Part shown: piece after piece, positions 4,539 to 50,895 of the stretch
Numbering within the stretch: position 1 is the first letter of the stretch
Layout: each line of letters opens with the position of its first letter
Source of the DNA: Candidatus Eiseniibacteriota bacterium
GTDB taxonomy: Bacteria; Eisenbacteria; RBG-16-71-46; SZUA-252
Reading direction: 5' to 3'
Assembly: GCA_005893165.1 (NCBI GenBank)
Contig: VBOR01000057.1
Span: forward strand, 15,408 to 79,407
Length of the DNA: 64,000 nucleotides
Translations under genes and position numbers: made by a program
Notes under the pieces: model-generated
Database searches by the model: none
Told to the model about the DNA's origin: nothing
The model's input: only the letters and a program-made list of their open reading frames with translations

Positions 4539-4903
4539 ACCTCGAACCCGCCCGGAACCTCCCCGCCCAGGACCTCGCGCGCGAAGCGGCGCGGCTCACC
4601 CTGACCAAGCGGGCCGAGGACGTCGTGATCCTCGACCTCCGCGAGCTGGACGGAGTCTGCGACTACTTCGTGCTCTCGACCGGTCAGTCGGAGGTCCAGA
4701 CGCGCGCGATCGCGGACGCCGTGGACGAGGGAATGCGCGCGCGCGGCGTCCGTCCCTGGCACGTGGAAGGGTACGAGGCGCGGCGCTGGATCCTTCTCGA
4801 CTACGTGGATTTCGTCGTGCACGTCTTCCACACGCGGGCCCGTGAGTATTATCTCTTGGACAAGCTCTGGGGCGATGCCCACCGAGAAACCGTGGCCGAT
4901 TGA
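4535..4903 (+). CDS. rsfS: Ribosomal silencing factor RsfS (Iojap family); TTG start overlapping the upstream stop (TTGA)
   Basis: C-terminal 120 aa of ORF 4097..4903 (EDVVILDLRELDGVCDYFVLSTGQSEVQTRAIAD...HVFHTRAREYY). Confidence 0.75.
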   Translation: MNLEPARNLPAQDLAREAARLTLTKRAEDVVILDLRELDGVCDYFVLSTGQSEVQTRAIADAVDEGMRARGVRPWHVEGYEARRWILLDYVDFVVHVFHTRAREYYLLDKLWGDAHRETVAD

Positions 4904-6403
4904 GGCCTACCTTGCGGAGCGCCTCGAGGCAGCGATTCCCAAAGCGGGGCTCATGCTTCCCGAGGGCGCGCGCATCGACGTCGAGGTTCCGCGCGAGCCC
5001 GAGCACGGAGACTGGGCCACCCCGGTCGCGCTGACGCTCGCGAAGACCGCGCGCCGGCCGCCGCGGCAGGTCGCGGAGACGCTGCGGGACGTGCTCGTGA
5101 AGGAGATCGAGCGGGACGTCGTGAGCTCGATCGAGATCGCGGGCGCCGGATTCATCAACTTCCGCCTCGCGCCCGCCTGGCTCACCGCCAATCTCACGCG
5201 GATCCTCGAGAACCCCGGCGTCTACGGCAGCTCTCCGGTGGGGCGCGGGGAGAAGATCCTCATCGAGTACGTGAGCGCCAATCCCACCGGTCCGCTCAAC
5301 GTCGTGAACGCGCGCGCCGCGAGCATCGGCGACGCGCTGATCCGGATCCTGAACGCGGCGGGGTACGAAGCGCGCGGGGAGTTCTACGCGAACGACTGGG
5401 GGCTTCAGGCGGAGCTCTTCGGCGCCTCCATCGAGACGCGCTTCCAGGAGCGTCTCGGACTTCCGGCTTCCCCTCTTCCCGAAGAGGGCTACGCCGGAGC
5501 GTACGTGGCGGAGGTCGCGCGCACGGTGCCGGAGCAGGACGGACGCTCGTGGCTCGGGCTCCCGGAGCGCGAGCGGCGGCTCCGCTTCGCGGGGTGGGGC
5601 ATCGACCGCATGCTGGAGCGGCAGAAGGTGGATCTCGACCGCTTCGGCGCGCGGATGGACCGCTGGTTCCGCGAGAGCGAGCTCCATCGAGGGGGCGCGG
5701 TCGAGAAGGCGCGCGCGCGCCTGGGCGAGCGGGGGATGACGGAGACGCGCGACGGCGCGCTCTGGTTCCGCTCGACCGAGTTCGGGTGATCGAGGCGCTG
5801 GGATGGCCTCGGGAGCGCTTCGAGGTGATCCTGATCCAGTGGGTTCGGCTGCTCCGGGGCGGGGAGCCGGTGAAGATGTCCAAGCGCGCGGGGGAATTCA
5901 TCACGCTCGAGGATCTCGTGCAGGAGGTGGGCGTGGACGCGGCGCGCTTCTTCTTCCTCATGCGCCGCGCGGAGAGCCCGCTCGACTTCGATCTCGAGCT
6001 GGCGGTCAAGCGGAGCGAGGACAATCCCGTGTACTACGTGCAGTACGCGCACGCGCGCATCGTCCATGTCCTGGAATACGCGACGAGCCAGGGCGTGCCG
6101 GAGCCGTCCCTCGCGGCGGCGCGGCCCGATCTCCTGCACGAGGCGGAGACCTTGACGCTGCTCCGCGGGCTCGCGGGATTTCCGTCCCTGGTCGCGGCCG
6201 CGGCGAGGCACCGGGAGCCCCACCGCATTCCCATGTACTTGAAAGACTTGGCGGCCCGTTTTCATTCGTTTTATCACGTGCACCGGGTGGTCGGTCCCGA
6301 TGCCGCCGTCACCGCGGCCAGGCTCCTCCTCACGCGCGCGACCGGCGTCGTCTTTCGCCGCGGGCTGGAGCTCCTCGGCGTGAGCGCTCCGGAGTCGATG
6401 TAG
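4875..6403 (+). pseudogene. argS: Arginyl-tRNA synthetase, disrupted: frame switch near 5785, loss of about 50 codons (the DIAY...GADHHGH core), and HIGH motif replaced by NVVN
   Basis: N-half in frame 0 (ORF 4842..5789) ends ALWFRSTEFG*; the C-half in a different frame (ORF 5549..6403) resumes RVRVIEALGWPRERFEVILIQ...KMSKRAG...DALR domain. Confidence 0.8.
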
Positions 6404-6405
6404 GC

Positions 6406-7434: not shown

Positions 7435-7440
7435 GCTCCC

Positions 7441-12037: not shown

Positions 12038-13383
12038 GTGGCCGCTTCGGGCATTCTCCTCAGCCTTTCCTTCCCGAACGCGGGACTGATGCCGGTCGTG
12101 TTCGTCGCGCTCGTCCCGCTCCTCGTCTGGATGGAGCAGTCGAGCGCGGGTCCGCACCGGACCTCGGCGCTTGCTCCCGAGCCGCGCGGGATGTTCTGGA
12201 TTCCTTGGATCACGGGAATCGTATTCAACGCGCTCCTCTTCTGGTGGCTGGTCCGCCTTCCCGCGCGCGCGATGACGTTCCCCTGGATCATCGGTCCGGG
12301 ACTCCTGGCGCTCGCCGTCTATCTTGGATTCTTCGTGGCCCTCTTCGGATGGCTCGCGCGCTTCATCCGGCGCCGCGTCGGCTGGTCGCTCCTCGTCGTG
12401 GCGCCCGCCGTGTGGGGCGCCTGCGAGTGGCTCAAGTCCTCGGGTCCCCTGGGGTGCACGTGGGGAAACGTGAGCTACGCGCTCGCGGAGCATCCGGCGT
12501 GGATCCAGGGAGCGTCGATCGTCGGCGCTCCGGGGCTCAGCATCTGGATCGAAGTGGGATACCCTACACCAAGAAAGGAGCATCGGGACCCTGGCGCGCC
12601 TCACCTCGGAAGCGGTGTCCCGCGAGCCGAAGCCGGACCTGGTCGTCTGGCCCGAGACCGCGCTTCCCTTCTACGTGCGTCTCGAGGCCCAGAAGCTCGA
12701 CCGGATTCTGGAATTGGTGCGCGCGTGGAACGTGCCGCTCCTGGTGGGGTATCCCGACGCGACCTTCAGCCTGAGCGGCGGCGTGATCACCCACAACGCG
12801 GCCGGGCTCATGCTCCCCTCGAAGACGATCGCGGCCCAGTACGAAAAGATCCACCTCGTCCCATTCGGGGAGCGGATCCCATTCCAGGGGATCCTGCCGT
12901 TCCTGGGAAAGCTCGACCTGGGTCAGGCGGAGTGGACCCCCGGCACCAAGCCCGTGGTGTTTCCGTTCCGGGACGCGCCTTTCGGGGTCCTGATCTGCTT
13001 CGAGTCGATCTTTCCGGGACTCGCGCGCGACTACGCGGTCGACGGCGCGCGCTGGCTCGTCAACATCACCAACGACGAATGGTTTGGCCCGACCGCGGCC
13101 CCCCGCCAGCACGCCGACATGGCCATCTTGCGCTGCGTGGAAGAGGAGATGGGCATGGCGCGGTGCGCGAACACGGGGATCTCGATGCTCATCGATCCGC
13201 TCGGGCGCGAGTCGAAATCGAGCCCTCTGTTCCAGGAGGCGGTCGTGGTGGGGGATGTCGTCCTGGGGGGGAAGCCGACGCTGTTCCGGCTCTGGGGGGA
13301 CTGGCTCACCGGACTCTGCCTCGGGCTGGTTCTCGTCCTGACCCTCCTCGGCTGGTACCGCCCGCTCCGAAGAGATCGCTGAC
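12038..13383 (+). pseudogene. lnt: Apolipoprotein N-acyltransferase, disrupted by a frame change near 12550-12600 with apparent loss of about 60 codons (last TM helices and the start of the CN-hydrolase domain)
   Basis: Membrane N-domain in ORF 12038..13438 ends ...PGLSIWIEVGY then non-homologous; the CN-hydrolase domain in a different frame (ORF 12615..13382) starts at ...LARLTSEAVSREPKPDLVVWPETA. Catalytic E (WPE), K (KIHLVPFGE) and C (ICFESIF) are present. Confidence 0.75.
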
Positions 13384-13526: not shown

Positions 13527-14267
13527 GTGCCCGGCTCGCCGGAATCCGACGAAGTGAATCCAGCATCACCCAGAACGCGTGCGCTCCATCCGCTCGCGTG
13601 GCTCCTCTCGCTCGCGTTCGTCGGCGTGGGTCTTGCGCTCACGCGTTCCTGGATCGATCTCGCCGTCGCGGGAATCCTCCTCGCCATCCTGGCGCTCCGC
13701 GCGGAGCGGAAATCTCTGCGCGCGGAAGCTCCTCTGCTGGGACTCGCTCTCATCGTCTTCCTCGCGCACGTCGTGTTCGCCGGCAAGGGATTCCGGGCCG
13801 CGCTCGCGCCCGCCGCGGTGATTGCGTGGCGCCTCCTGGCGCTCCTGTATCTCCTGAGGTGGGCGGCCCGGTCGGCGCTGGGTCCCATCGCGCGCTGGCT
13901 CATGGGGCACCGCCCCCCGTCGCGGCCGCGTATCCTGCTCGTGCTCGTGGAGAGCGCGCGCCTCACGGCCGGGCTCCTGCCCCTGGCGCTCCGCGAGGCC
14001 GAGCAGCACGTGCAGGCGCTGCGCGGGCGCGGGATCCGTCCGGGCCGGGGCCTCCAGGGGATCGCACGATACCTCCTCGCCTGGTTCCTGCCGTTCCTGG
14101 GAACGATGCTCCGGATCGGAGGCGCCTATGCCGACGCGCTTACCGTCCGGGGCTACCGGCTGGCGTGCGCCCGGCGGGCCGGCCTCCCCCTCCACTGGGG
14201 AGTCCGGGAATGGGGGGCGGTCGTGGGGAGCGCCACCGGGGCGGCGTGGTTCCTGCGTGTCTTCTGA
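13527..14267 (+). CDS. Polytopic membrane protein, CbiQ/EcfT-like (ECF-transporter T-component-like), GTG start
   Basis: Five or six TM helices, C-terminal ADALTVRGY motif reminiscent of EcfT; weak call. Confidence 0.45.
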   Translation: MPGSPESDEVNPASPRTRALHPLAWLLSLAFVGVGLALTRSWIDLAVAGILLAILALRAERKSLRAEAPLLGLALIVFLAHVVFAGKGFRAALAPAAVIAWRLLALLYLLRWAARSALGPIARWLMGHRPPSRPRILLVLVESARLTAGLLPLALREAEQHVQALRGRGIRPGRGLQGIARYLLAWFLPFLGTMLRIGGAYADALTVRGYRLACARRAGLPLHWGVREWGAVVGSATGAAWFLRVF

Positions 14268-14283
14268 GGCGCGCACCCTCACG

Positions 14284-14891
14284 GTGCGTCTCGGGATCGA
14301 ATTCGACGGCAGCGACTTCCACGGCTGGCAGGTTCAGCCTCGTGACCGTACCGTTCAGGGGGAGATCGAGCGGGCGATGTGGGAGGTGACGGGGACGAAC
14401 GTGAGGATCGCGGGAGCAGGAAGAACCGATTCGGGGTGTCACGCATCAGGTCAGGTGGCGAGCGCGACGCTCCGGACCCGGCTCACGCCCGAGCGGCTTC
14501 GCATGGCGCTCAACGCGCACCTGCCACGGGACGTGCGGATCGTGGAGGCGGCGGAGACGGATCCGGACTTTCATGCGAGATTTCGCGCGATGCGGCGCGC
14601 CTACCGCTACCTGATCGTCTCGCGGCCCACGGCACTCCTGTCCCGGCGCGCATGGGCGCGTCCCATCCGCGCGGATCTGGAAGCGCTCCGCCGCGCCTCA
14701 CGGCCTCTCGAAGGGTCCCACGGCACGCCGCCGAAGAGGGCGGGGGAGGCAAGGCCGTCCGCGCGGCGCTTCACGCCCGCGATCGGAAGCGCGCCATGCC
14801 GCCCGCGCCCGCTCATGGCTTGTACCTCATGGGGGTCCGCTATCCCCGGCTGGGATGGCTTCCCAAGGAGCATCTGGATGTCTCTGGCTGA
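14284..14891 (+). pseudogene. truA: tRNA pseudouridine(38-40) synthase TruA, disrupted: frame change near 14720-14745 with about 70 codons missing
   Basis: Frame 1: RLGIEFDGSDFHGWQVQP...GAGRTDSGCHASGQVA...RYLIVSRP...EALRRASRPLEGSHG; frame 0 resumes GGGGKAVRAALHARDRKRAMPPAPAHGLYLMGVRYP (conserved C-terminus). Confidence 0.75.
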
Positions 14892-16149: not shown

Positions 16150-17350
16150 TCCCGCGCTACAGCCGCCCCGAGATGGCGGCCCTCTTCGACGATGCCGCCC
16201 GCTACCGGACCTGGCTCGAGGTGGAGCTGGCCGTCTCGGCCGCGATGGAACGGACCGGCGAGGTGCCCGCGGGGGTGACCGCGCGCGCCCGCTCGCGCGC
16301 CAAGGTGGATCCCAAGCGGGTGGACGATCTGGAGGCGACCCTCCGTCACGACGTGATCGCGTTCCTGTCCGCGCTGGGAGAATCGGTCGGGGAGGACGCG
16401 CGCCACCTTCACAAGGGCATGACCTCCTCGGACCTCGTGGATACGGCGCTGGCCCTCACCTTGACGCGCGCCTGCGACCTGCTCCTCGCCGAGACGAAGC
16501 GCCTTCGCGACACGGCGCGTGCCCTCGCGGTCCGCCACAAGGAAACCAGCGGGCCGCGGTCGCGGTGGGAAAGCTTTCCGGCGCCGTGGGCACCCACGCG
16601 CACCTGAGCCCCGAGCTCGAGGAGGAGGTGCTGCGTTCGCTGGGCCTGGAACCGGAGCCCGTGGCGACCCAGGTCGTGCAGCGGGACCGACACGCCGAGC
16701 TGGTGCAGTCGATCGCGCTCCTCGGGGCCTCGCTCGAGAAGATCGCGACGCAGATCCGCCTCATGCAGCAGACCGAGATCCTCGAGGTGGAAGAGCCCTT
16801 CCGGGAAGGCCAGAAGGGTTCCTCGGCGATGCCCCACAAGCGGAATCCGGTGAACTGCGAGCGGATCTGCGGGCTCGCGCGGGTGCTGCGCGCGAACGCG
16901 CTCGTGTCGCTCGAGAACGTGGCGCTCTGGCACGAGCGCGACATCAGCCACTCGAGCGCGGAGCGGGTCATCCTTCCGGATTCCTTCCTCGCCTGCGACT
17001 TCATGGCCGTCCAGCTGCGCGAGGTGCTGGAAATGCTCCACGTCTACCCCGAGCGCATGCGCTCCAATCTCGAGATGACCCGCGGCCTGATCTACTCGCA
17101 GCGCGCCCTCCTGGCGCTCATCCAGGCCGGCATGTCCCGAGAGGACGCCTACGCGCTGGTGCAGCGGCACGCCATGGCGGCCTGGAAGGGCGAGCCCGGT
17201 CTCAGCGAGCGGCTCGCGTCCGATGCCGCCGTGACGCGGGCGCTGAGCCAGGAAAAGCTCGTCGCCTGCTTCGATCCCGCCCACTTCACACAGCACGTGA
17301 ACCGAATCTTCGAGCGTGTTCTGGGAGAGCCCGTTGCAGCAGCTCGATAA
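16146..17350 (+). pseudogene. purB: Adenylosuccinate lyase, disrupted: frame change near 16545-16565 with about 45 codons missing, including the GRTHGxHA catalytic loop
   Basis: TTG start LIPRYSRPEM (B. subtilis MIERYSRPEM); frame 0 to ...AVRHKET; a different frame resumes VGKLSGAVGT...GSSAMPHKRNP signature intact. Confidence 0.8.
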
Positions 17351-22705: not shown

Positions 22706-24802
22706 GTGTCCGAATCCACCAACGTCGCACGCAAGAAGCTGGGGGAATACCTGCTCGAGGCCGGTATCATCACGGACCGGCAGCTCAAGGAGGCTCTGAG
22801 GCGGCAACGCCAGACCAAGGAGCCGCTCGGGCACATCCTCGCCCGCCAGGGCATGGTGAGCGAGGCGGACATCTGCCGCGTCCTGCACCAGCAGCTGGGC
22901 CTTCCCATCGTCGAGCTGGAGAGCATCGCCATCGACGAGCAGGTGATCGCGCTCGTTCGCGAGGACCTGGCCAAGAAATACACCGCGATCCCGATCGAGC
23001 TCGAGAATCGCAGCACGATCCGCGTGGCCCTGGCGGATCCCTTGAACGCGCAGGCGCTCGAGGACATCAAGTTCCAGAGCGGCTACTTCGTGCGTCCGGT
23101 CCTGGCGCCCCCCTCCGAGATCGTGGAAGCGATCGCGAAGTACTACCATATCGACGCCTCCGTCGTGGAGATCCTCGAGAACATCATCAAGAACGATCCG
23201 ATCCAGGAGATCCGGGAGATCGTTCCGAGCGAGGGGGAGGAGAACCTCGACGAGCTGATGAAGGTCAGCTCGGGCCCTCCGATCGTGCGACTCGCGAACT
23301 GGGTGATCACGCGCGCGGTCGAGATGAGGGCGAGCGACATCCACGTCGAGCCCCAGGACAAGTGGGTCGGCGTCCGGTGCCGCGTGGACGGCCTGCTGCA
23401 AGACCTGGAGCGGCTTCCCAAGTGGACCCAGGGGGCGCTGGTCTCGCGCATCAAGATCCTGGCCACCCTGGACATCGCCGAGAAGAGGCTTCCACAAGAT
23501 GGCAGCTTCCGGGTGGAGATCGACAACCGACGCATCGACCTCCGCGTCTCGACCCTCCCCACGGCGCACGGCGAGAAAATCGTGATCCGCATCGTGGACC
23601 AGGAGCGCTCGGCGCTCCATCTGGACTCGCTCGGGCTCTCCGAACAGGCGCTGAACCGGATCCGCGCCTACGGCCAGCGTCCGCAGGGGATCGTGGCCGT
23701 CACCGGACCGACGGGAAGCGGCAAGAGCACGCTCCTCTACTCGCTCCTCCAGCACATCCACAGCGTGACCAAGAACATCCTCACCGTGGAGGACCCGATC
23801 GAGTACCAGATCTCCGGGATCAACCAGGTCCAGGTGGACGAGAAGAGCAAGAAGACCTTCGCCGCGATCCTCCGCGCCATGCTGCGCCAGGATCCCGACG
23901 TCATGATGATCGGAGAGGTCCGGGATCTCGAGACGGCGCAGATCGCCTTCCGCGCCTCGATCACCGGGCACCTCGTGCTGTCCACGGTGCACACCAACGA
24001 CGCCGCCTCCGCGGTCACGCGTCTCGTGGACCTGGGGCTCCAGCCCTACATGGTGGCCTCGAGCCTGATCAGCGTCATCTCGATGCGGCTGGTGCGGCTT
24101 CTCTGCCCCAAGTGCAAGGACCAGTACGCGCCGGTGGGGGACGAGCTCCGAATTCTGGGATTGACGTCGCGTGAGGCGCAGGGGGTCGGTCTCTTCCGCC
24201 CCGTCGGCTGCGAGAACTGCAACCAGACCGGATACCGGGGCCGGACCGGGATCTTCGAAATCCTGGAACTGGACGACCCGCTTCGCCGGCTCATCGCGGC
24301 GGGCGGCGCGGAGTCGATGATCCGTGCCGCGGCCGTGGAGAGCGGCATGACGCCGATCGGAGAGGACGGCCTCATGAAGGTGATGGCGGGCGAGACCTCC
24401 CTCGAAGAGCTGCGGCGCGTCGTCTTCTACGAGGAGGAGGCCGCGCGCCTCTGTCCTTCCTGCCGCCAGACCGCCGCGGCCGAATACCACTTCTGTCCGC
24501 ATTGCGGGCACACGATCACGGCCGCCTGCTTGAAGTGCGACCGCCGGGTGGACGCGACCTGGGAATTCTGTCCCGGCTGCGGGACTCATCGCGTGCCCAG
24601 CGTGATCGCCGGGACCGACGAGAGCCTGATTCCCGCGCCCGAGCCCGCGCGCGCCGCGCCGGCGCGCGTGCCGGTTCCCCCGCGTCCTCCGGGCTCGCCG
24701 CGCACTCCTTCGCCGCAGCGAACCGACGTGCGCCGGGACCTTCCAGCGTCCGGAGAATCGTGTCCGTCCAAGATTCGCGCCGCGAGAAACTCGACTCTCT
24801 GA
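22706..24802 (+). CDS. GspE/PilB-superfamily secretion ATPase of MshE type (N-terminal MshEN-like c-di-GMP-binding repeats) with a C-terminal double zinc-ribbon extension
   Basis: N-terminus KLGEYLLEAGIITDRQLKEAL...PLGHILARQGMVSEADICRVLHQQLGLP; Walker A GPTGSGKST; GEVRD; His box GHLVLSTVHTND; tetracysteine CPKC...CENC; tail CPSCRQ...CPHCGH...CLKC...CPGCG. Confidence 0.85.
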   Translation: MSESTNVARKKLGEYLLEAGIITDRQLKEALRRQRQTKEPLGHILARQGMVSEADICRVLHQQLGLPIVELESIAIDEQVIALVREDLAKKYTAIPIELENRSTIRVALADPLNAQALEDIKFQSGYFVRPVLAPPSEIVEAIAKYYHIDASVVEILENIIKNDPIQEIREIVPSEGEENLDELMKVSSGPPIVRLANWVITRAVEMRASDIHVEPQDKWVGVRCRVDGLLQDLERLPKWTQGALVSRIKILATLDIAEKRLPQDGSFRVEIDNRRIDLRVSTLPTAHGEKIVIRIVDQERSALHLDSLGLSEQALNRIRAYGQRPQGIVAVTGPTGSGKSTLLYSLLQHIHSVTKNILTVEDPIEYQISGINQVQVDEKSKKTFAAILRAMLRQDPDVMMIGEVRDLETAQIAFRASITGHLVLSTVHTNDAASAVTRLVDLGLQPYMVASSLISVISMRLVRLLCPKCKDQYAPVGDELRILGLTSREAQGVGLFRPVGCENCNQTGYRGRTGIFEILELDDPLRRLIAAGGAESMIRAAAVESGMTPIGEDGLMKVMAGETSLEELRRVVFYEEEAARLCPSCRQTAAAEYHFCPHCGHTITAACLKCDRRVDATWEFCPGCGTHRVPSVIAGTDESLIPAPEPARAAPARVPVPPRPPGSPRTPSPQRTDVRRDLPASGESCPSKIRAARNSTL

Positions 24803-29837: not shown

Positions 29838-29864
29838 CCGAAATGGTGGGGGAGGTCGAGATCC

Positions 29865-32153
29865 ATGCATGACAAGTTCACGGAACGCGTGCGGAAGGTG
29901 ATGTATCTCGCGCGGGAAGAGGCCGCGCGGCTTCAGCACGATTACATCGGCACCGAGCACCTGCTCCTCGGGGTCATCCGCGAGGGAGAAGGCATCGCGG
30001 CCACGGTGCTGAACAACCTGGGGCTCGATCTGGACGCGATCCGCCAGGCGGTCGAGAGCATGGTCTCCTCGACCGGCGGCACGCTCACGATCGGGGAGAT
30101 CCCCTTCACGCCGCGCGCGAAGCGCGTGCTCGAATTGAGCGTCGACGAGGCGCGCCAGCTGGGGCACAACTACGTCGGCACGGAGCATCTCCTCCTGGGG
30201 CTCATCCGGGAAGGGGAAGGGGTCGCCGCGCGCGTCTTGCTGGAGCTGGGGGTGGATCGGAAGAAGGTCCGCGAGGAGACCCTGAAGCTCCTGGGCGGGA
30301 CCGACCGAGTCATCCAGGTCCTCTCCCGCCGCAAGAAAAACAATCCGATCCTGATCGGAGAGCCGGGCGTGGGCAAGACCGCCATCGCCGAAGGGCTCGC
30401 GGAGCGGATCGTCGAGAACAAGGTCCCCGAGACCCTCAAGGACAAGCGGATCGTCACCCTGGACCTCGCCGCCGTCGTGGCGGGCACCAAGTACCGCGGT
30501 CAGTTCGAGGAGCGCCTCAAGGCGGTCATGAACGAGATCCGCGAGTCCAAGGACACGATCATCTTCATCGACGAGCTCCACACGATCGTCGGCGCGGGGG
30601 GCGCGGAGGGGGCGATCGACGCCTCCAACATGCTGAAGCCGGCCCTGGCGCGCGGCGAGCTCCAGTGCATCGGCGCGACCACCCTGGACGAGTTCCGCAA
30701 GTACATCGAGAAGGACGGGGCCCTGGAGCGGCGGTTCCAGCCGATCATGGTGGACCCGCCCTCCGTGGATCAGACGATCCAGATCATCCGCGGGCTGCGC
30801 GACAAGTACGAAGCGCACCATGGCGCCAAGTATTCCGACGATTCCATCGTGCAGGCGGTCAAGCTGGCCGACCGCTACATCAACGACCGCTTCTTACCCG
30901 ATAAGGCAATCGACGTGATCGACGAGGCGGGTGCGAGCGCGAGGCTCAGCATCTCGGCCATTCCGACCGAGGTGCGCGAGCTGGAGAAGCAGGTGGAAGA
31001 GGTCGCCAAGGAGAAGGAGGCCGCCATCCAGCAGCAGGAATTCGAGAAGGCGGCGCGCTTCCGCGACAAGGAGAAGGATCTTCGCTCGAAGCTCCGCGAG
31101 CACAAGAAGACCTGGACCGAGATCAAGCACGAGAAGGAAGCGCTCGTCGACGTGGACCTGATCGCCAAGGTCATCTCGCGCATGACGAGCATCCCGATCG
31201 CCCGCCTCGAGGAGAAGGAATCGGAGAAGCTGCTCCGCATGGAAGAGGAGCTCCGGAAATCGATCGTGGGCCAGGAGGAAGCGGTGGCCGCCGTCTCCCG
31301 CGCCATCCGGCGCAATCGCGCCGGCCTTCGCGACCCGCGCCGTCCGATCGGATCCTTCATCTTCCTGGGCCCGACCGGGGTCGGCAAGACCGAGCTGGCG
31401 CGCGTTCTGGCGCGCTTCCTCTTCGACGATCCCGATGCCCTGATCCGGATCGATATGTCCGAATACATGGAAAAATTCTCGGTTTCCCGGCTCATCGGGG
31501 CGCCTCCGGGGTACGTAGGACATGAGGAGGGCGGGCAGCTCACGGAGAAGGTGCGTCGCAAGCCCTACTCGGTGGTCCTCCTCGACGAGATCGAGAAGGC
31601 GCACCCGGACGTGTTCAACATCCTTCTCCAAGTGCTGGACGACGGGCAGCTGACCGACAGCCTGCGCCGGAAGGTGGATTTCAAGAACACCGTGCTCATC
31701 ATGACGTCGAACCTGGGAGCACGGCAGATCAAGGGAGGCCGGGGTCTGGGCTTCACCGACCGGGAAGGCGGGTCGAATTACGTGATCATGAAGAACACGA
31801 TCATGGATGAAGTGAAACGGGTCTTCAATCCCGAGTTCCTGAACCGCATCGACGAGATGATCGTGTTCCATCCGCTCGATCGCCCGCAGATGGGATCCAT
31901 CACGAAGATCCTGCTCGGGCAGGTCGCGGACCGGATGAAGGGGAGCGGGATCACGCTGAACTTCGAGGACGAGGTCGTGGATCTGCTCATCCAGAAGGGC
32001 TTCGACGAGGCGCTGGGAGCGCGTCCGCTCAAGCGGAGCATCCAGAAACTGATCGAAGATCCGCTTTCGGAGCACGTTCTGCGCGGCCAGCTGAAGGAGG
32101 GAAGCGACGTTTTGGTTTCCCGCCGGGGTGACGAGCTGATTTTCGCCTCTTGA
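29865..32153 (+). CDS. clpC: ClpC-type AAA+ chaperone (N-repeats, D1, UVR linker, D2); carries an in-frame deletion removing the universally conserved ...LDPVIGR... segment
   Basis: Duplicated N-domain, Walker [14 protein letters not shown] and [30 protein letters not shown]; the sequence goes LKLLGG directly to [16 protein letters not shown]. Confidence 0.85.
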
Positions 32154-34589: not shown

Positions 34590-35012
34590 ATGACTCGACA
34601 GCGACCACTGCGTGCGGTAGTCTGGGCGATCGCATTTTGTTGCCTTGGGCTGCCGGCCTTTGTGAGCGCGGCCGATCTCAAGATCGGCTTCATTGACTCC
34701 GAGCGGATCTTTGCCGAGTATCCCGGCACGCAGGAGGCGCAGAGGTCCTTCAACCGGGAAGTCCAGGACCTCACGAAGACGGCCAAGGAAAAGAAGGCCG
34801 AGATCGACGATCTCCAGCGCAAGCTGGACGCTCAGGGACCCATGTTGAGCGAGGCGAAGCGGGACGAGCAGAACCAGGCGCTGCAGAAGAAAATCGCCGA
34901 CTACGAAACGTTCGTTCAGAAGAACTGGGGACCGCAAGGCGAGGTCTCGAAGATGAACGAGCGGTTCCTGAAGCCGATCGTGGATCGCGTGCACAAGATC
35001 GTCAGGCCGTAG
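34590..35012 (+). CDS. skp: Skp/OmpH periplasmic chaperone, apparently lacking the C-terminal ~35 aa (EGYDLVLD...DIT region)
   Basis: Signal peptide + coiled-coil KIGFIDSERIF...; ends ...PIVDRVHKIVRP* only 43 nt before lpxD. Confidence 0.7.
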   Translation: MTRQRPLRAVVWAIAFCCLGLPAFVSAADLKIGFIDSERIFAEYPGTQEAQRSFNREVQDLTKTAKEKKAEIDDLQRKLDAQGPMLSEAKRDEQNQALQKKIADYETFVQKNWGPQGEVSKMNERFLKPIVDRVHKIVRP

Positions 35013-37430: not shown

Positions 37431-37461
37431 GGCGGACGGACTCACCGGCACCTGGGCACGG

Positions 37462-38277: not shown

Positions 38278-39242
38278 TCCGCCTTCGCGCGGGGGTGGTC
38301 GGGGTCGGACACCTCGGCAGCCACCACGCGCGCGCGTGGTCCAAAACCAAGGATGCCGTGCTCTCCGGAGGGTTCGATCCCGATCCCTCAGCGAGGGCGC
38401 GCGCCGCCCGCGAGCTCAAGCTCCCGATGTTCGATACGCTCGAGGAGCTGCTCGACCGCGTGGACGTCGTCTCGATCGCGGCGCCCACGCCCCAGCATCA
38501 CGAGCTCACCCTGACCTGCCTGGGCCGCGGCCTTCACGTGCTCGTGGAAAAGCCGATGGCGGCCACCGTGACGGAGGGAAGTTCCATGCTGGCGGCGGCC
38601 CGTGCGGGCTGACGCGCGCTCTTCGTGGGCCAGGTCGAACGCTTCAACCCCGCTGTCCAGGCGTCCCGCCCCCATCTCAAAGCGCCGCGATTCATCGAGG
38701 CGCACCGGCTCGCCCCGATCGTGCCCCGCGGCATCGACGTGGACGTGATCCTGGATCTCATGATCCACGACCTGGATCTGGCGCTCTGGCTCACGAGGTC
38801 GCGGGTAATCGAGGTGCACGCCGTGGGGGTCCCGGTGCTGACGCCGCGCATCGACATCGCGAACGCGCGACTCACGTTCGCGAGCGGCTGCGTGGCGAAC
38901 CTGACCGCGAGCCGCGTCTCCCGCGAGAAAATACGCAAGATTCGCTTCTTCGAGACGAACGAGTACCTCTCGATCGATTGCCTGAACCGGAGCGTCGAGG
39001 CGTACACGCTCGCGCCCTCCGGCTCCGAGGCTCCCACGGACCTTCTCAAGCGGATCCGGCCGCTCCGGATCCAGGTCGAGACACGAGACCCCCTCGAGTC
39101 GGAGCTCACCCATTTCCTGGCGCTCTCGCGCGAGCCGGAGGCCTCCTGGGAGGAGGCCGAAGTCGCGCTGGAGGCGCTTCGGGTCGCGGAGGAAGTGCGG
39201 GCGCAGGCGCTGCGAAATCTCCCGCTGGACCTGCCGGTCTGA
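38274..39242 (+). pseudogene. Gfo/Idh/MocA oxidoreductase (GnnA-like position between lpxA and lpxB) interrupted by an in-frame TGA at 38610-38612
   Basis: ORF 38274..38612 and ORF 38625..39242 share one frame: ...MLAAARAG*RALFVGQVERFNPA; Rossmann GVVGVGHLGSHHA; EKP. Confidence 0.7.
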
Positions 39243-41688: not shown

Positions 41689-42676
41689 GAGGGATCGCGG
41701 GAGTGTTCGAGCGCTCCTGGTCCGGGGAGCCGGGCACCCTCGCGTGGACCCGGCTCCTGATTCCGGCGGCGTCGGTGTACGCGATCGCCTCAGGGGCCGC
41801 GCGCCGCCGCGCTTCCGCGAGGAGGCGCGACCTTCCCGGCGCGTACGTCATCGCGGTGGGGAACCTGACCGTGGGGGGCGCCGGGAAGAGCACGATCGCG
41901 CGATGGCTCGCGCTCGAGCGCACCGGATCGCGCTCCCCCGGGAGATCGCGGTCGCCGCGGATCCAGACCGCCGGCGCGCCGCCCAGGCCGCGAAGGATGG
42001 ATACGGGGCGGCGGTCCTCGTGCTCGACGACGGGTGGGAGCAATCGAGGCTCCGCTGGAACGAGCTCTGGGTCGCGCTCGATCCCCGGCGGCCGGCGGGG
42101 AATGGATTCCTTCTCCCGGCCGGGCCCCTCCGGCGCCCGGTGGCGACGCTTCGAGAGGCGAGCCGTATCGTATTCCTCCTCGAGGAAGAGGGCGAGGAGG
42201 TGCCGTCCGGGACGCTGAGCTGGGCGGATCGCACCGCGCCCGGAGTGCCGCGCCTCCGTGTTCTGCGCACGCTCCTGGGAACGGGGCCGCTCGGCGCGCG
42301 CCGGGGCGCCGCGGGCGCGCCGCGCGCGGTGGATGCGATTCGCAGAGGCGACAAGGTCGGGCTTCTTTCCGGGATCGGATCGCCGCAGCGGCTGACGCGC
42401 TTCGTCGCGGGCGCGGGCGTGGACGTGAGATTTCACGCCGCGTTCCCCGACCACGCCCGGTGGCGCGGACCGGAGCTTCTCGCCGCGGTTCGGCGCGCGA
42501 GGTCCGCCGGGGCCGAGTCCGTATGGATCACGGAAAAGGACGAGCCGCGCTGGCCGCGCGATCTTCGCCTGGACCTGCCGGTGCGCGTCATCCGCACCGG
42601 GCTCAGGCCGCTGGATCCGGTCGAGGACGCCCTTCGCCCGCTCCGGGCGGCCGTGGCCGTGGGGCCACCGAGATGA
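41685..42676 (+). pseudogene. lpxK: Tetraacyldisaccharide 4'-kinase, disrupted: frame change near 41915-41935, about 40 codons missing (RGYGG... region)
   Basis: Frame 0 VFERSWSGEPG...VGNLTVGGAGKSTIARWLALERTG; frame 2 resumes REIAVAADPDRRRAAQ...VLVLDDGWEQ...GNGFLLPAGPLR. Confidence 0.75.
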
Positions 42677-44304
42677 AGCGCACGGTGAAGAAAGAAACGG
42701 ACGTTCTGGTCATCGGGAGCGGCGTCGCGGGGCTTTCGGCCGCGCTCCACGCGGCCCGGTTCGCGCGCGTGCTGGTCGTGACGAAGCGCGAGGGACACGA
42801 GTCCAACACGAACTACGCGCAGGGCGGAATCGCGGCGCCGCTGGGCGAGGACGACCGGCCCGAGATCCACGAGCGCGACACCCTGGTCTGCGGCGCCGGT
42901 CTCTGCGACCCCGAATCCGTGCGCGTGCTCGTGGAGGAGGGCTCGGGAGAGATCGCGCACCTGGTCTCGCTCGGGGTGCGCTTCGACCGAGACCCCAAGA
43001 CCCCGGGAGCCCTCGCGCTCGGGCAGGAAGGGGGACATTCGCGCCGGCGCATCGTCCACGCGAAGGACCGCACCGGCCGGGCCGTGGAGTCGACGCTCCT
43101 GGATCAGGTGCGGAAGCACCCCAAGATCTCCATCCTCGAGAACCACATCATGGTGGATCTCATCCTGGAATCGAAGCATCTCGCGGGACGAAAGCGGGCA
43201 CCGCAGCGCGACCGCGTCTGGGGAGCCTACGTGCTCGACCGGGGCCGCGGCTCGATCCGCCCGCTCGCGGCGCGCGCCACCGTGCTCGCCACCGGCGGTG
43301 CGGGAAAGGCGTACCTCTACACGACGAATCCCGACATCGCGACCGGGGACGGGCTGGCGGCCGCGTTCCGCGCGGGCGCGCCCGTCGCGAACCTCGAGTT
43401 CATCCAGTTCCATCCCACGTGCCTCTTCCACCCGGACGCCAAGTCCTTCCTCATCTCGGAAGCGGTGCGCGGTGAAGGCGCAAAGCTCCTGACCGCGGAC
43501 GGGAAGCCCTTCATGCACCGCTACCACCGCCTGAACGAGCTGGCCCCGCGGGACGTGGTCGCCCGCGCCATCGACGCCGAGATGAAGCGGCGCGGCGACA
43601 AGTTCGTGCTCCTGGATCTCGCGCGTCTGGGGAAGCGCCTCCTGCTCCGGCGATTTCCCCACATCACGAGCCGCATTCTCGAGTTCGGGTACGACGTGTT
43701 CCACGATCCGATTCCCGTGGTGCCCGCGGCGCACTACATCTGCGGCGGCGTCGTCACCGATCTGGACGGGCGCACTGCGATTCCGGGGCTCTACGCGTGC
43801 GGCGAGGTGGCCTGCACGGGAGTCCATGGCGCGAACCGCCTCGCCTCGAACTCCCTCCTCGAGGCGCTCGTGTTCGCGCGGCGCACGGGGCGCGCGGTGC
43901 TGCATCAGCTCCTCGTGGAAGGACGCGCCCGGACGCCCCGGCTCCCGGCCTGGAGAACCAATGGAGCGGTCACGCCGAAGGAGCAGGTGATCTTCGACCA
44001 CAATTGGGATGCGCTGCGAAGGGTCCTATGGGACTATATGGGCATCGTCCGCAGCGACGAGCGGCTGAAACGGGCGGCCACCACGGTCGGATTGCTGCGC
44101 GATCAGATCGAGCGCGACTACTGGAGCTACCGGCTCGACAGCGACCTGGTCGAGCTTCGCAACATCGGTCTCGTGGCCGATCTCATGGTGGCATGCGCGC
44201 TGAGGCGGAAGGAAAGTCGCGGGCTGCACTACAACGTGGATCATCCTCGGACCCTCGATTCGTTTCGGAACGACACCACGCTCACCCGTCGGGATGTACG
44301 CTGA
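42673..44304 (+). CDS. nadB: L-aspartate oxidase
   Basis: FAD-binding DVLVIGSGVAGL, YAQGGIAA, RHSRR-type active site, collinear with NadB. Confidence 0.9.
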   Translation: MKRTVKKETDVLVIGSGVAGLSAALHAARFARVLVVTKREGHESNTNYAQGGIAAPLGEDDRPEIHERDTLVCGAGLCDPESVRVLVEEGSGEIAHLVSLGVRFDRDPKTPGALALGQEGGHSRRRIVHAKDRTGRAVESTLLDQVRKHPKISILENHIMVDLILESKHLAGRKRAPQRDRVWGAYVLDRGRGSIRPLAARATVLATGGAGKAYLYTTNPDIATGDGLAAAFRAGAPVANLEFIQFHPTCLFHPDAKSFLISEAVRGEGAKLLTADGKPFMHRYHRLNELAPRDVVARAIDAEMKRRGDKFVLLDLARLGKRLLLRRFPHITSRILEFGYDVFHDPIPVVPAAHYICGGVVTDLDGRTAIPGLYACGEVACTGVHGANRLASNSLLEALVFARRTGRAVLHQLLVEGRARTPRLPAWRTNGAVTPKEQVIFDHNWDALRRVLWDYMGIVRSDERLKRAATTVGLLRDQIERDYWSYRLDSDLVELRNIGLVADLMVACALRRKESRGLHYNVDHPRTLDSFRNDTTLTRRDVR

Positions 44305-44305
44305 T

Positions 44306-44701
44306 ATGGCGGCTGATCTGGAAACGGCGCTGCTGGACGTGGCGCAGAAGTACGGGCGGTACAAGCCCAACGCGTACCGGTTCACGCTCGACGCGGTTCA
44401 CTTCACCGTCAAGGGGGTCGGGCACAGCGGTCACGTGAGCGGCGTGGAGCTCCTGGAGGGCATCCGGCGGCTCGCCCTGGAGCGTTTCGGTCCCATGGCC
44501 AAGACGGTCTTCGAGCAGTGGGGGATCGCGATCACCGAGGATTTCGGCCACATCGTGTTCCAGCTCGTGGACGAGGGGCTTCTCGGCAAGACCGAGCAGG
44601 ACAAACTGAGCGATTTCGCGCGCGGGTACGACTTCAACGAGGCGTTCGTGCAGAATTTCGACTGGCTCGGCCGCATCACCGATTCGAGTGACGCCACCTA
44701 G
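44306..44701 (+). CDS. Conserved hypothetical cytoplasmic protein (about 130 aa)
   Basis: ORF with ATG 1 nt after the nadB stop; no recognisable catalytic motif. Confidence 0.45.
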   Translation: MAADLETALLDVAQKYGRYKPNAYRFTLDAVHFTVKGVGHSGHVSGVELLEGIRRLALERFGPMAKTVFEQWGIAITEDFGHIVFQLVDEGLLGKTEQDKLSDFARGYDFNEAFVQNFDWLGRITDSSDAT

Positions 44702-46759: not shown

Positions 46760-47740
46760 GTGGCCCACCGCCGCGCGGCGGCGGTCCTCCGCTTCTCCTC
46801 CCTGGGGGACGTTCTCCTCGCCGCTCACGTTCCCGCATTTCTCAAGCAGGTGGATCGCGATCGCCGCGTGCTCTTCGTGACGAAGGAACGATTCGCGGGT
46901 CTTCTGCGAGGGCATCCGGACGTCGATCGCGTGTACGCCCTCGAGGAGCGCGGAAGCGATCCCGCGGCGCCCTCGACGGGTGTGGTGGGGAAGCTCGGGG
47001 TGCTGATCGCGGCACTGCGAGGGGACGGAGTCGAGGAGATCTTCGACCTGCACCAGAACTGGCGGTCCTCGCGAATCGTCACCGCGTTTCCCCAGGCGAA
47101 GCACGTCCTGCCTCCCAAGTACGGTCTGAGGCGCAGGCTTCGGGTGTACGCGCGATGGTTTCGCCCCGAGCCCGTGCCGCCGCTCCTCCGCACGTACCGG
47201 AGCGCCGCCGGGCTCGATCCCGACGCCCCGCTTTCCCCCTGGCTACGGAACGCGCTCTCCGAGGCGGAGCTTGCATGCGGCTCGGAGCAGGCGCCTGGGG
47301 GCTCGAGCGGCCGTGGGTTCGTCCTCCTCGGCGCGGGAGCGCGCTGGGAGACGAAGCGCTGGCCCGCGGCTCATTTCGCCACGCTGGCCCGGCGGATCGA
47401 GCGAGAGCTGGGTCTGGGGGTCCGCTACGCCGTGACCGGCGGGGAGCGGGCCGCGCAGGAGCTCGTCCCGCACCTCCAACGCAACGAGACACCGCTCTTC
47501 CTTCCGTTCCGGGAGCTCGCGGCCGTGGCGGCGCACGCGCGCGCCATCGTCTCCAACGATTCGGCCGTGCTCCACCTCGGCCCCGCTCTGGGAGTCCCGG
47601 CGGTGGGCATCTTCGGCGGGACCGTTCCCGAGTTCGGGTTCGCGAGGCAGGGTCCGCGGGACGAGGTGGCGGAGATCCGTCCCTGGTGCCGGCCCTGCGG
47701 GGCTCATCACGAGCTCCGATCCGGAGGGGCTCGCGCGCGC
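46760..47740 (+). pseudogene. GT9-family LPS heptosyltransferase; reading frame breaks within the last ~25 codons (near 47690-47705) and the conserved C-terminus continues in the frame of the downstream gene
   Basis: LRFSSLGDVLLA..., VLHLGPALGVPAVGIFGGT, ...WCRPCGAHHEL then garbage; a different frame reads GLITSSDPEGLARAVEQTIG. Confidence 0.6.
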
Positions 47741-48675: not shown

Positions 48676-48703
48676 TTGATTCCACGCGCGCGGCTTCCAT
48701 AAT
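48676..48703 (+). promoter_or_regulatory. Sigma-70-type promoter TTGATT-N16-CATAAT upstream of tdh-kbl
   Basis: Read directly in the 126-bp gap. Confidence 0.45.
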
Positions 48704-48788
48704 CCGATCTTGGGCCGTACGTTAGCTCACCGGGAGGAACCCTGTGACCCTCGAGACCACCACCCGCACGAACGTGAAGATCGACCGC

Positions 48789-49826
48789 ATGTGGGCCATC
48801 GAAAAATCGAAGCCCGAGGCGGGCCTGTGGAAGATCCAGGCCCCGATTCCGTCGGGCGGACCCAAGGACGTGCGCATCCGCGTGACCGCGTTCGCGATCT
48901 GCGGCACCGATCTGCACATCGTGGACTGGGACCGCTGGGCCGCGTCGCGCGTGAAGACGCCGCTCGTCTTCGGTCACGAGTTCACCGGGATCGTGGACTC
49001 GGTCGGGGCGGAGGTGAAAGCGGTGCGTCCGGGGGACCGCGTCACCGGGGAGACCCACGTGTACTGCGGTCTCTGTTACGCGTGCCGGCGCGGGCTCCAG
49101 CACCTCTGCTACAACGTGGAGATCCTGGGCGTCGACCGGCAGGGCGCCTTCGCCGACTACGTCCTCCTTCCGGAGCAGAACGTGTGGAAGCTCCACCCCG
49201 ACATTCCCGAGGAGATCGCGGCGGTGCACGATCCCCTGGGGAACGCGGTGCACACGGCGCTCGCCGGGCCGGTGGCCGGACTCAAGTTCGCGGTCTTCGG
49301 GTGCGGTCCCATCGGGTGCTTCGCGGTGGGCGTGCTCAAGGCATCGGGCGCCGCCTGGGTGGCCGCGGTGGACAAGAATCCCCTCCGCCTCGAGATCGCG
49401 GAGCGCATGGGGGCCGACCTCACCCTGAACGTCCAGCGCGATCCCATCGTGAAGACCATTCTGGCCTCGACGGACGGCCGCGGCGTGGACGGGATGCTCG
49501 AGATGTCGGGACACCCGAATTCCTTCCGCGAGGGATTCGAGGCGCTCGCGAACGGAGGCCGCGTCTCCCTGCTGGGCATCCCCAGCAAGCCGCTCGAGAT
49601 CGACGTGGCGAAGGAGATCATCTTCCGGGGAGCCGTCGTGCAGGGAATCAACGGCAGGCTCATCTTCGACACCTGGTACCGGATGGAGGCGTTGCTCCTG
49701 AGCGGCAAGCTCGACGTCAAGCCGGTGCTCACGCACGTGATGGGATGGTCCGACTTCGAGGAAGCGGTGGAGCTCCAGCGGTCGGGCAAGGCGGGGAAGA
49801 TCGTGCTGAAGCGGGACCATCCGTGA
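48789..49826 (+). CDS. tdh: L-threonine 3-dehydrogenase (zinc MDR family)
   Basis: Aligns to E. coli Tdh from the N-terminus; GHEFTG, catalytic Cys ICGTDLH, GCGPIG NAD motif. Confidence 0.85.
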   Translation: MWAIEKSKPEAGLWKIQAPIPSGGPKDVRIRVTAFAICGTDLHIVDWDRWAASRVKTPLVFGHEFTGIVDSVGAEVKAVRPGDRVTGETHVYCGLCYACRRGLQHLCYNVEILGVDRQGAFADYVLLPEQNVWKLHPDIPEEIAAVHDPLGNAVHTALAGPVAGLKFAVFGCGPIGCFAVGVLKASGAAWVAAVDKNPLRLEIAERMGADLTLNVQRDPIVKTILASTDGRGVDGMLEMSGHPNSFREGFEALANGGRVSLLGIPSKPLEIDVAKEIIFRGAVVQGINGRLIFDTWYRMEALLLSGKLDVKPVLTHVMGWSDFEEAVELQRSGKAGKIVLKRDHP

Positions 49827-50895
49827 GCGCGGGACCCGTGACCGAGCATCCGCTCCACTACCTCGACGAGGCGCTCCGGGAGCTGAGGCGGGACGGGCTC
49901 TACCGCACCCTCCGCGAGCTGGAAGGAGAGCAGCTTCCGCGTGCCCGCTTCGACGGACGGGAGGTCATCAATCTCTCCTCGAACAATTACCTCGGGCTCA
50001 CGACGCATCCCAAGCTCAAGGAGGCGGCCATCCAGGCGGTCCGGACGCTCGGCGCAGGCTCGGGCTCGGTCCGTACCATCGCCGGGACGATGAAGCTCCA
50101 CATGGAGCTGGAGCGGCGCATCGCGGCCTTCAAGAAAACCGAGGCCTCGGTGGTCTTCCAGAGCGGGTTCGCCGCGAACGCGGGCACGGTGAGCTCCCTC
50201 CTCGGCAAGGAAGACCTCATCATCTCCGACGAGCTGAATCACGCGAGCATCATCGACGGGGCCCGGCTCAGCCGCGCCCAGATCCGCGTCTTTCCGCACC
50301 GGGACGTGGAGGCGCTGGAGCGGCTCCTCGAGGAGACGCGCGACGTGAAGCGCCGGCTCGTGATCACGGACGGCGTCTTCAGCATGGACGGCGACGTAGC
50401 ACCTCTCCCCAAGATTGCCGCGCTCGCCCGGGCGCACGGCGCGATCATGATGATCGACGACGCGCATTCGAGCGGAGTCCTGGGGAAGGCCGGCCGCGGC
50501 ACGGTGGATCATTTCGACCTGCACGGCCAGGTCGACGTCCAGGTTGGCACGCTCTCCAAGGCGATCGGCGTCCTGGGAGGATACGTCTGCGGCTCGAAGA
50601 GCCTGATCGAGTACCGCGCCGCTTCAAGGCGGGACTGGCCCGGCTGGGATTCAACACGGGATCGAGCGAGACGCCCATCACCCCGATTCTCGTGGGGGAG
50701 GCGGATCTCGCGATGCGCTTCTCCGACCGGCTCTTCGAGCGAGGGGTGTTCGCCCAGGGAATCGGCTATCCCACCGTCGCGAAGGGGAAGGCGCGGCTCC
50801 GCACCATCGTCACGGCGACGCATACCGACGAGGACCTGGACCGCGCCCTCTCGATCCTGGGCGAAGTGGGACGGACGCTGGGCGTCGTTCCCTAG
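49823..50895 (+). pseudogene. kbl: 2-amino-3-ketobutyrate CoA ligase (glycine C-acetyltransferase), disrupted: frame change near 50610-50625 with about 45 codons missing
   Basis: Frame 2 ...NNYLGL...GTLSKAIGVLGGYVCGSKSLIEY; frame 1 resumes RFKAGLARLGFNTGSSETPITPILVGEADLAMRFSD... Confidence 0.8.

Follow-up and report, generated by a model that had tools for sequence, protein, structure and literature searches.

Ten block losses in a public Eisenbacteria soil MAG as very probable collapsed contig joins rather than gene decay

Interrupted genes in decaying and in mis-assembled genomes

In decaying genomes, such as those of Mycobacterium leprae and Sodalis, many conserved genes are interrupted while the motifs flanking the interruptions are intact. 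Decay gives a wide range of lesions, including 1-bp frameshifts, stops, IS insertions and large deletions, and these are common to all copies of the strain. The DNA analysed here, a window of 64,000 nt taken from a GenBank contig of 87,778 bp in a Candidatus Eisenbacteria soil MAG, resembles these genomes in that its conserved genes are interrupted with their flanking motifs intact. It differs from them in having a single lesion type of narrow size range, which falls where contigs meet and which other assemblies of the strain lack.

Errors of assembly provide a closer parallel. The source project, BioProject PRJNA449266, in which the MAG has the locus-tag prefix E6K71, states of its scaffolding errors that they were 'corrected as previously described' (PMC6784897), so the MAG's own study applied a correction of the kind represented by ra2.py and fix_assembly_errors (PMC5079060, PMC5220378). 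That correction finds zero-coverage regions at scaffolded contig pairs and reassembles the flanking reads with Velvet, regions which cannot be corrected being turned into Ns (PMC5079060; ra2.py, PMC5220378). At the sites described below, junk or N runs occur in the project's raw scaffolds. The published outcomes of such repair are corrected sequence or Ns, however, whereas the window has zero-length joins deleting 109–188 nt. For collapsed or mis-sized gaps and mis-joins of the type addressed by REAPR (PMC3798757) and similar evaluators, a reference-free signature is expected, with clipped reads on either side of the join and no read pairs of proper spacing across it, whereas detection in the window rests on sister assemblies.

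Ten blocks missing from the window

At each of ten sites the window lacks one block that is present in contigs of 99.3–100 % identity, which come from over 15 further public assemblies (Table 1). The comparison contigs, numbered here with the prefix L, were drawn from ENA MEGAHIT assemblies, the ENA 'CRIT18-1_SAMN089028xx' scaffolds and JGI metagenomes, and all ten blocks are found there. Loss sizes were measured against near-identical intact contigs, and the skips were seen again in Pfam profile coordinates. The blocks are 109–188 nt long (mean 150, sd 25, n = 10) and their GC content, 0.64–0.77, equals that of the flanks. The joins are blunt, with microhomology of 0–1 nt (n = 10), and follow one another at intervals of 1.8–8.2 kb; two of the ten are in frame (clpC and skp), eight shift the frame and one is intergenic. 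Relative to the other contigs the window has zero further indels and 9 private SNPs in 51 kb, and it contains no N. The number of intact contigs spanning a site ranges from one at argS, where part of the block occurs in four others, through 10 at kbl to 20 at lpxK.

Nine block losses had been claimed in the original prediction, and all are confirmed at 0–20 nt from the positions given, with 36–63 codons lost per site. The accompanying claim that the lesions form two clusters does not hold, because a tenth, intergenic loss at 24723|24724, absent from that prediction, makes the spread even.

Table 1. Joins, the point substitution and matching contig segments, in window coordinates
Feature	Position	Strand	Change	Residues lost
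Join 1, argS (4875-6403)	5785..5786	+	157 nt lost; frame shift	ArgS aa 304-356
Join 2, lnt (12089-13382)	12551..12552	+	188 nt lost; frame shift	Lnt aa 155-217
Join 3, truA (ends 14891)	14722..14723	+	157 nt lost; shifts into htrA frame	
Join 4, purB (16146-17350)	16548..16549	+	109 nt lost; frame shift	PurB aa 135-171
Join 5, intergenic, T2SSE-like ATPase gene / lysS	24723..24724	+	149 nt lost	
Join 6, clpC (29865-32153)	30301..30302	+	129 nt lost; in frame	43 codons
Join 7, skp/ompH 3' end (34590-35012)	35004..35005	+	180 nt lost; in frame	
Join 8, lpxK (41703-42676)	41918..41919	+	136 nt lost; frame shift	LpxK aa 73-118
Join 9, GT9 / 2-hydroxyacid dehydrogenase	47702..47703	+	172 nt lost	
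Join 10, kbl (49838-50895)	50615..50616	+	127 nt lost; frame shift	Kbl aa 260-302
In-frame TGA, Gfo/Idh/MocA oxidoreductase gene (38274-39242), lipid A cluster	38610..38612	+	point substitution	
ERZ27315204 contig L099	5786-12551			
ERZ27315204 contig L135	14723-16548			
ERZ27315204 contig L003	24724-30301			
ERZ27315204 contig L124	35005-41918			

Conserved core motifs of essential single-copy-type genes fall inside the lost blocks. The argS block holds the conserved motifs GPDHHGH and RTNGEPTYF; contig L097 is 100 % identical to window positions 1–5785 and then resumes 157 nt later, and intact ArgS is a protein of 561 aa with all three Pfam ArgRS domains. In lnt, the profile match runs through LNT_N to 153/159 and then continues in CN_hydrolase from 13/256 in a different frame. 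Similar skips interrupt PurB (Lyase_1 7–152, then 191–308), LpxK (2–58, then 108–295, versus 2–295 intact) and Kbl (Aminotran_1_2 2–239, then 284–360, versus 2–359 intact). At Join 9 the GT9 gene loses its 3' end and the 2-hydroxyacid dehydrogenase gene its first 5 codons.

The two in-frame losses shorten their products. ClpC, which has lost its linker and the start of its first ATPase domain, is 762 aa long in the window versus 805 aa in contigs L001 and L002 and in about 90 cluster members. Skp is reduced from 200 to 140 aa, the last 60 codons but one having gone, and OmpH profile coverage falls from 1–141 to 1–104; the contig collection has the intact 200-aa form in 55 of its indexed blocks. 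Both shortened proteins are in the public record. The window ClpC is identical to TMQ49406.1 and the window Skp, ending in KIVRP, is identical to TMQ49408.1, each translated across its join, and the zero-length joins are therefore present in the deposited record, a proof which covers joins 6 and 7. Protein and contig look-ups place the shortened ClpC and Skp in one GenBank MAG and in no other assembly; the 762-aa ClpC is absent from the contig index searched, and two junction-spanning 34–35-mers have no match in 241 million JGI metagenome records, where the intact loci are present.

Contig ends, gaps and the origin of the joins

The joins coincide with places at which other assemblies stop. 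Seven right ends of contigs or sub-contigs lie within 0–1 nt of the left base at six of the ten joins, and the chance probability of six exact matches among 23 ends is ~2e-18. Contigs L098 and L099 both end exactly at base 12551 (lnt), L135 and a sub-contig of L105 at 16548 (purB), L109 at 24723 (Join 5), L003 at 30301 (clpC) and L002 at 35004 (skp), and L124 ends at 41917, at most 1 nt from the lpxK join base 41918. Four contigs of ERZ27315204, a MEGAHIT assembly, each correspond to a single window segment and share its right end (Table 1), and each runs 115–149 nt further left, into the lost block. Among them is L135, which carries an HtrA variant otherwise private to the window and begins 15 nt inside the truA block. 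Other contigs likewise start within the missing sequence: L099, L100 and L101 begin 13–21 nt inside the argS block, L105 and L106 begin 24 and 45 nt inside that of lnt, L109 and a sub-contig of L105 both begin 62 nt inside that of purB, and L122 and L124 both begin 65 nt inside that of skp. At Join 5, L002 and L003 begin 10 and 7 nt before base 24723, while the end of L122 and the start of L016 lie 40–46 nt before Join 9.

Raw scaffolds bear N runs or junk at six joins. Those of the closest sample, SAMN08902847, are at least 99.9 % identical to the window and show 41 Ns after base 16548, 10 Ns at truA and at the intergenic join, junk at argS and GT9 and an 8-nt indel at lpxK. By scaffold, L098 has 26 nt of junk from the argS join onward; L105 has junk and 10 Ns at truA, a 41-N run that begins directly after 16548 and a 10-N run at Join 5 that ends at the start of L003; L014 has an 8-nt deletion at lpxK and junk at Join 9; and L015 has junk and 10 Ns at Join 9. 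The junk tails have no match on either strand of the 65-kb region and so represent foreign sequence.

The ten losses are very probably an artefact of assembly or curation of this public soil MAG, consisting of collapsed contig joins, and not gene decay, since other assemblies of the same strain contain the lost bases. The window would be made up of about eleven short-read contigs of a MAG scaffold joined end to end, with the sequence between contigs, or at a contig start, dropped at each join and no N run left, resulting in ten blunt 'deletions' of 109–188 nt spaced 1.8–8.2 kb apart. The collapse may have arisen through automatic repair of local scaffolding errors at contig joins, or else through a later removal of gaps before submission, two steps which sequence alone does not separate. 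If the joins are collapsed, the broken argS, lnt, truA, purB, lpxK, GT9 and kbl are not properties of the organism, and neither are the shortened ClpC and Skp. The original prediction had named zero-length scaffold gaps together with high-GC dropouts: the former agree with the position of the joins at contig ends and N runs and with the presence of the blocks in same-strain assemblies, whereas the latter are unsupported because block and flank GC are equal. The cited pipeline leaves Ns at uncorrectable regions and the record has none at the joins, an observation which counts against the artefact reading.

Genuine deletions of 109–188 bp at ten loci, in a decaying or redundant genome with argS, lnt, truA, purB, lpxK and kbl as pseudogenes, are very unlikely. 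The lesions do stand in the deposited sequence, and the strain has one true nonsense polymorphism, the TGA at 38610, which is reproduced in three other assemblies. Same-strain contigs (L122, L124, L135, L097, L002 and L016) are, however, intact or carry the block: L122 and L124 have the TGA variant, L122 with lpxK intact, and L135, the carrier of the private HtrA variant, holds most of the block. Furthermore, the junctions fall on contig ends and N runs elsewhere, and ten blunt losses of narrow size, unaccompanied by small indels or further stops over the 51 kb compared, do not match the spectrum of decay. Invariant motifs of essential enzymes would have been lost, such as ArgS GPDHHGH, which is kept in 116 of 120 homologues, and the shortened products occur in no other assembly. 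The original prediction had entertained a decaying or redundant copy, a suggestion left unsupported now that its argument from the ArgS HIGH motif has proved wrong, ArgS homologues sharing N-[VI]-V-[NS]. It had also considered that close relatives might naturally lack the segments; every relative has them, which points to an artefact.

It is just as unlikely that a real minority sub-population with the deletions exists beside the intact strain, so that assembly graphs branch at the left junctions and the MAG took the deleted alleles. Contigs do end exactly at the left junction base in several samples and in the output of two types of assembler, as expected if a deletion breakpoint forms a branch point independent of k. 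The same model, however, predicts contig starts exactly at the right junction, and none were found; contig starts instead lie between 10 nt upstream and 66 nt downstream of the left junction, and the contigs continue through the right one. The two junction probes are absent from JGI contigs, the shortened proteins are confined to one GenBank MAG, and ten such lethal alleles would need to be linked in a single genome. The least probable of these explanations is that the blocks were N runs in the public record, stripped when the 64-kb window was prepared. The window is without N and the project's raw scaffolds have N runs at these sites, yet the exact translation of TMQ49406.1 and TMQ49408.1 across joins 6 and 7 refutes stripping for those two. 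There is, finally, a slim chance that the base-exact, sample-independent breakpoints mark something real in the population DNA, either a co-occurring lineage with structural variants or a systematic failure of sequencing, for instance at modified or damaged DNA; the MAG deletions would then be alleles of a defective sub-lineage.

Several causes of the breakpoints themselves were tried and rejected. Contig ends recur base-exact across assemblies that are ~0.1 % apart in sequence, so random coverage gaps are insufficient alone. High-GC dropout fails on the equal GC noted above. Secondary structure, including hairpins, does not mark the joins consistently: in an 80-nt MFE scan five of the ten left edges are unremarkable. 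Nor are the blocks hypervariable, their polymorphism not rising above background once junk in single raw scaffolds is set aside. Graph branching through long exact repeats shared with sister species finds no exact run of at least 40 nt at the blocks; GTDB relatives are 70–87 % identical at the DNA level, and a scan of GTDB species representatives revealed relatives at no more than 93 % identity. A strain-SNP model, in which a contig ends at the last SNP plus k-1, finds no SNPs at the predicted offsets. The base-exact recurrence of contig ends is accounted for by none of the models tested, which counts against the artefact reading.

The collapsed joins bring no biological novelty, and their practical value lies in data hygiene. 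In this public MAG contig, silent 150-nt deletions occur at a rate of about one every 5–6 kb. GenBank and UniRef list the shortened proteins as real (ClpC, UniRef100_A0A538SDH4; Skp, UniRef100_A0A538SDF4), and annotation would turn at least seven further genes into pseudogenes or fused ORFs. Conclusions about auxotrophy, gene loss or 'decay' in Eisenbacteria would be misleading if drawn from this MAG, and other bins given the same correction step may be affected likewise. A cheap check that requires no reads is to set a doubtful MAG contig against sister assemblies of its population and ask whether its lesions fall on their contig ends.

A stop codon and an ArgS motif outside the block-loss class

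Two further features had been grouped with the block losses. The in-frame TGA at 38610 is present as claimed, but it is not the same type of lesion. The codon is GGA (Gly) in nine contigs and TGA in the window and in L120/L123, L122 and L124, and the window agrees in length with contig k141_1028197 over 37176–39051. The TGA is a single G>T strain polymorphism, unrelated to the block losses.

The supposed loss of the ArgS HIGH motif had been taken as an argument for real decay. The position reads NVVN at 5298–5309, about 480 nt upstream of Join 1, and does so equally in intact copies of argS. Following SANPTGPL, NVVN aligns with the HIGH/HMGH of the ArgRS structures 3fnr and 2zue in the PDB, the canonical HIGH being absent. 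Of the 120 best ArgS homologues, with identities as low as 67 %, 119 have N-[VI]-V-[NS] at this position, and nearly all are full length (550–561 aa). NVVN is therefore a clade-wide substitution, a trait of the lineage and not a lesion.

Blocks missing from conserved genes

The window has a G+C content of 68 % and contains no N, and its + strand carries nearly all of the genes. The original prediction held that conserved genes are broken internally by the loss of blocks, and Pfam scans together with a plot of GC3 by frame agree, showing mid-domain changes of frame at the places named. In ArgS, one frame holds the N-terminal domain along with the beginning of the catalytic domain, and another holds the DALR domain. 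LNT_N stops at profile position 153 of 159 in Lnt, and CN_hydrolase picks up at 13 of 256 in a different frame. In PurB, Lyase_1 is covered from 7 to 152 and then, after six bases and in another frame, from 191 to 308. TruA is split. Profile coverage is 2–58 and 108–295 for LpxK, 2–239 and 284–360 for Aminotran_1_2 in Kbl, and 1–104 of 141 for Skp/OmpH, and in ClpC 43 residues are absent from the stretch separating Clp_N and the first ATPase domain.

Near-identical contigs were found by exact-protein look-up with intact window genes in more than 15 other assemblies (ENA MEGAHIT k141, ENA 'CRIT18-1_SAMN089028xx_METAG' scaffolds, JGI soil metagenomes and one Logan contig). Comparison with these contigs, which are 99.3–100 % identical to the window, reveals ten sites, each with exactly one block missing from the window (Table), which confirms the predicted losses. 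The intergenic loss at join 5 had not been listed; with it counted, the lesions do not form two clusters, as had been claimed, but are spaced 1.8–8.2 kb apart. Losses average 150 nt (sd 25), and only those in clpC and skp are in frame. The joins are termed blunt because they show just 0–1 nt of microhomology. The blocks encode conserved core segments such as '...RTNGEPTYFLADAAYHHDKF...GPDHHGH' of ArgS, the GPDHHGH motif being present in 116 of 120 homologues. No further window-specific indels were seen relative to the other contigs, and within the 51 kb covered more than once only nine SNPs are private to the window.

Table. Joins in the window, with retrieved contigs that end there and contigs of assembly ERZ27315204 that match the preceding window segment
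Join	Site	Junction	Missing (nt)	Intact product (aa)	Contig right ends	ERZ27315204 contig (window segment)
1	argS	5785|5786	157	561		
2	lnt	12551|12552	188	493	L098, L099 (12551)	L099 (5786-12551)
3	truA	14722|14723	157			
4	purB	16548|16549	109	437	L135, L105 sub-contig (16548)	L135 (14723-16548)
5	intergenic, T2SSE-like ATPase gene / lysS	24723|24724	149		L109 (24723)	
6	clpC	30301|30302	129	805	L003 (30301)	L003 (24724-30301)
7	skp	35004|35005	180	200	L002 (35004)	
8	lpxK	41918|41919	136	369	L124 (41917)	L124 (35005-41918)
9	GT9 / 2-hydroxyacid dehydrogenase	47702|47703	172	367 (GT9)		
10	kbl	50615|50616	127	394		

Joins, contig boundaries and the deposited record

Every retrieved contig was mapped onto a rebuilt 'intact' reference of 65,503 bp. 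At six joins the right ends of contigs, or of sub-contigs beside N runs, coincide with the left base of the window's junction or lie one base from it, the chance probability being ~2e-18 for six exact matches among 23 right ends. Contig starts fall between 10 nt upstream and 66 nt downstream of the left junctions (at GT9, 46 nt upstream), and these contigs continue straight through the right junctions. In assembly ERZ27315204, four contigs correspond one-to-one with window segments, sharing their right ends and starting 115–149 nt further out on the left, within the block absent from the window. One of them, L135, encodes an HtrA variant otherwise private to the window; L124 and a further contig, L122, carry the strain's TGA variant, and lpxK is intact across L122. 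The 'deleted' DNA is therefore present in the same population, and very probably in the same sample.

Contigs from different samples break at the same bases, with overlaps of 7–10 nt or gaps of 13–65 nt, and their consensus sequences differ by ~0.1 %. The GC of the blocks equals local GC, no consistent secondary-structure signal was found at the joins, and the contigs show no hypervariability within the blocks; GC, hairpins and hypervariability were thus rejected as causes, and sister-species repeats and a strain-SNP model also failed to account for the shared breakpoints. Contigs L116, L117 and L118, from different sources, end at another reproducible breakpoint, base 45711 of the intact reference (window ~44507), inside a 135-aa ORF (44294–44701) where the window has no join.

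The closest sample is SAMN08902847, whose scaffolds are at least 99.9 % identical to the window and aberrant at join sites. Immediately after 16548 there is a run of 41 N, and runs of 10 N occur at the truA site and the intergenic site; argS and GT9 carry 26–30 nt of junk, and 8 nt are deleted at lpxK. Junk beside N runs (up to ~210 nt) is called foreign because it has no match within the region. Raw 'CRIT18-1_SAMN...' scaffolds carry 26–210 nt of foreign sequence beside N runs at contig joins, including sites intact in the window (~4504–4725 in L014 and L120; 2289–2444 and 14496–14665 in L105; 1309–1514 in L116; several in L015), and nadB, lpxK, bamA and lolC are among the genes so broken.

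The 762-aa ClpC, the 140-aa Skp and a 112-aa N-terminal fragment of a Gfo/Idh/MocA gene match GenBank TMQ49406.1, TMQ49408.1 and TMQ49412.1 (locus tag E6K71_04930) exactly, all on one 87,778-bp contig of 'MAG: Candidatus Eisenbacteria bacterium'. Phylogenetic placement agrees with this label, as NadB is 87–93 % identical to that of GTDB Eisenbacteria-type MAGs. The GenBank ClpC and Skp are translations across joins 6 and 7, Skp ending '...HKIVRP*' with its Arg codon straddling 35004|35005; therefore the zero-length joins belong to the public record and do not stem from cutting of the window. For these two joins this also refutes the idea that N runs were stripped after GenBank deposition.

Several findings contradict real genome decay: contigs of the same strain are intact, the joins coincide with contig boundaries, the lesions are of a single type and narrow size range, and the truncated products are unique to this one MAG. 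The proposal of a decaying or redundant genome copy was wrong, then, the ArgS evidence offered for it being a clade trait. A minority sub-population carrying the deletions would explain the contig ends at left junctions; however, it also predicts contig starts at right junctions, of which none was seen, and two junction probes had no match in JGI contigs. The lesions are an assembly or curation artefact in a public MAG, of no biological interest yet worth flagging as a data-quality problem. The predicted collapse of scaffold gaps is upheld by the contig boundaries and N runs, but attribution to high-GC dropout is not, given the GC of the blocks. The names of the samples and the BioSample numbers attached to the nearest scaffolds lead us to infer that the MAG originated in the Angelo meadow study (PRJNA449266), which used per-sample assembly with IDBA-UD (PMC6784897). 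In the scaffold-correction procedure cited there (PMC5079060; script ra2.py, PMC5220378), regions of zero coverage at scaffolded contig joins are identified, flanking reads are reassembled with Velvet and unfixable regions are replaced by Ns. This step, or later gap removal, may have produced the zero-length joins.

Sequence variants unrelated to the joins

The HIGH position of ArgS reads NVVN (residues 142–145, window 5298–5309), ~480 nt upstream of join 1, both histidines being replaced, and aligns with HIGH/HMGH of solved ArgRS structures. Loss of this motif had been taken to argue for decay. However, among the best 120 homologues, which come from Eisenbacteria and their relatives and reach down to 67 % identity, 119 have N-[VI]-V-[NS]; almost all are 550–561 aa long, and the rest of the enzyme is well conserved. 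NVVN is thus a trait of the clade and offers no evidence for decay. An ArgRS clade that lacks the HIGH histidines is not known to have been described.

The in-frame TGA at 38610–38612 is present as predicted, but is not the same type of lesion: it consists of a G>T substitution in a GGA codon, with no block loss. The gene affected, which encodes a Gfo/Idh/MocA oxidoreductase of 322 aa and sits in the lipid A cluster between lpxA and lpxB, is divided by it into ORFs of 112 and 205 aa. The variant's occurrence in the window and three other assemblies (L120/L123, L122 and L124), and absence from nine, mark it as a real strain polymorphism, which could be a strain-level knockout or possibly be read through.

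Neighbouring genes and labels of relatives

A single 446-aa ORF (36090–37430) encodes a fusion of LpxC with a FabZ/FabA-type dehydratase and lies in an otherwise classical lipid A cluster, bamA-skp-lpxD-lpxC/fabZ-lpxA-(oxidoreductase)-lpxB-kdtA-lpxK. In this diderm candidate phylum, an mcsA/mcsB/clpC (protein arginine kinase) module (28237–32153) adjoins the genes for biogenesis of the outer membrane and LPS. For truA (14128–14891), gene callers give only 181–198 aa even in intact contigs, the call starting late; because the same frame encodes a PseudoU_synth_1 N-terminal domain further upstream (~14299–14583), the true start is probably near 14128–14300. Third-party MAG catalogues label some close relatives (L017, DASQAV010000101.1; HYR52479.1; HXL15637.1) as Dormibacterota, Methylomirabilota or Binatia, which suggests mis-binning or mis-classification in those catalogues.
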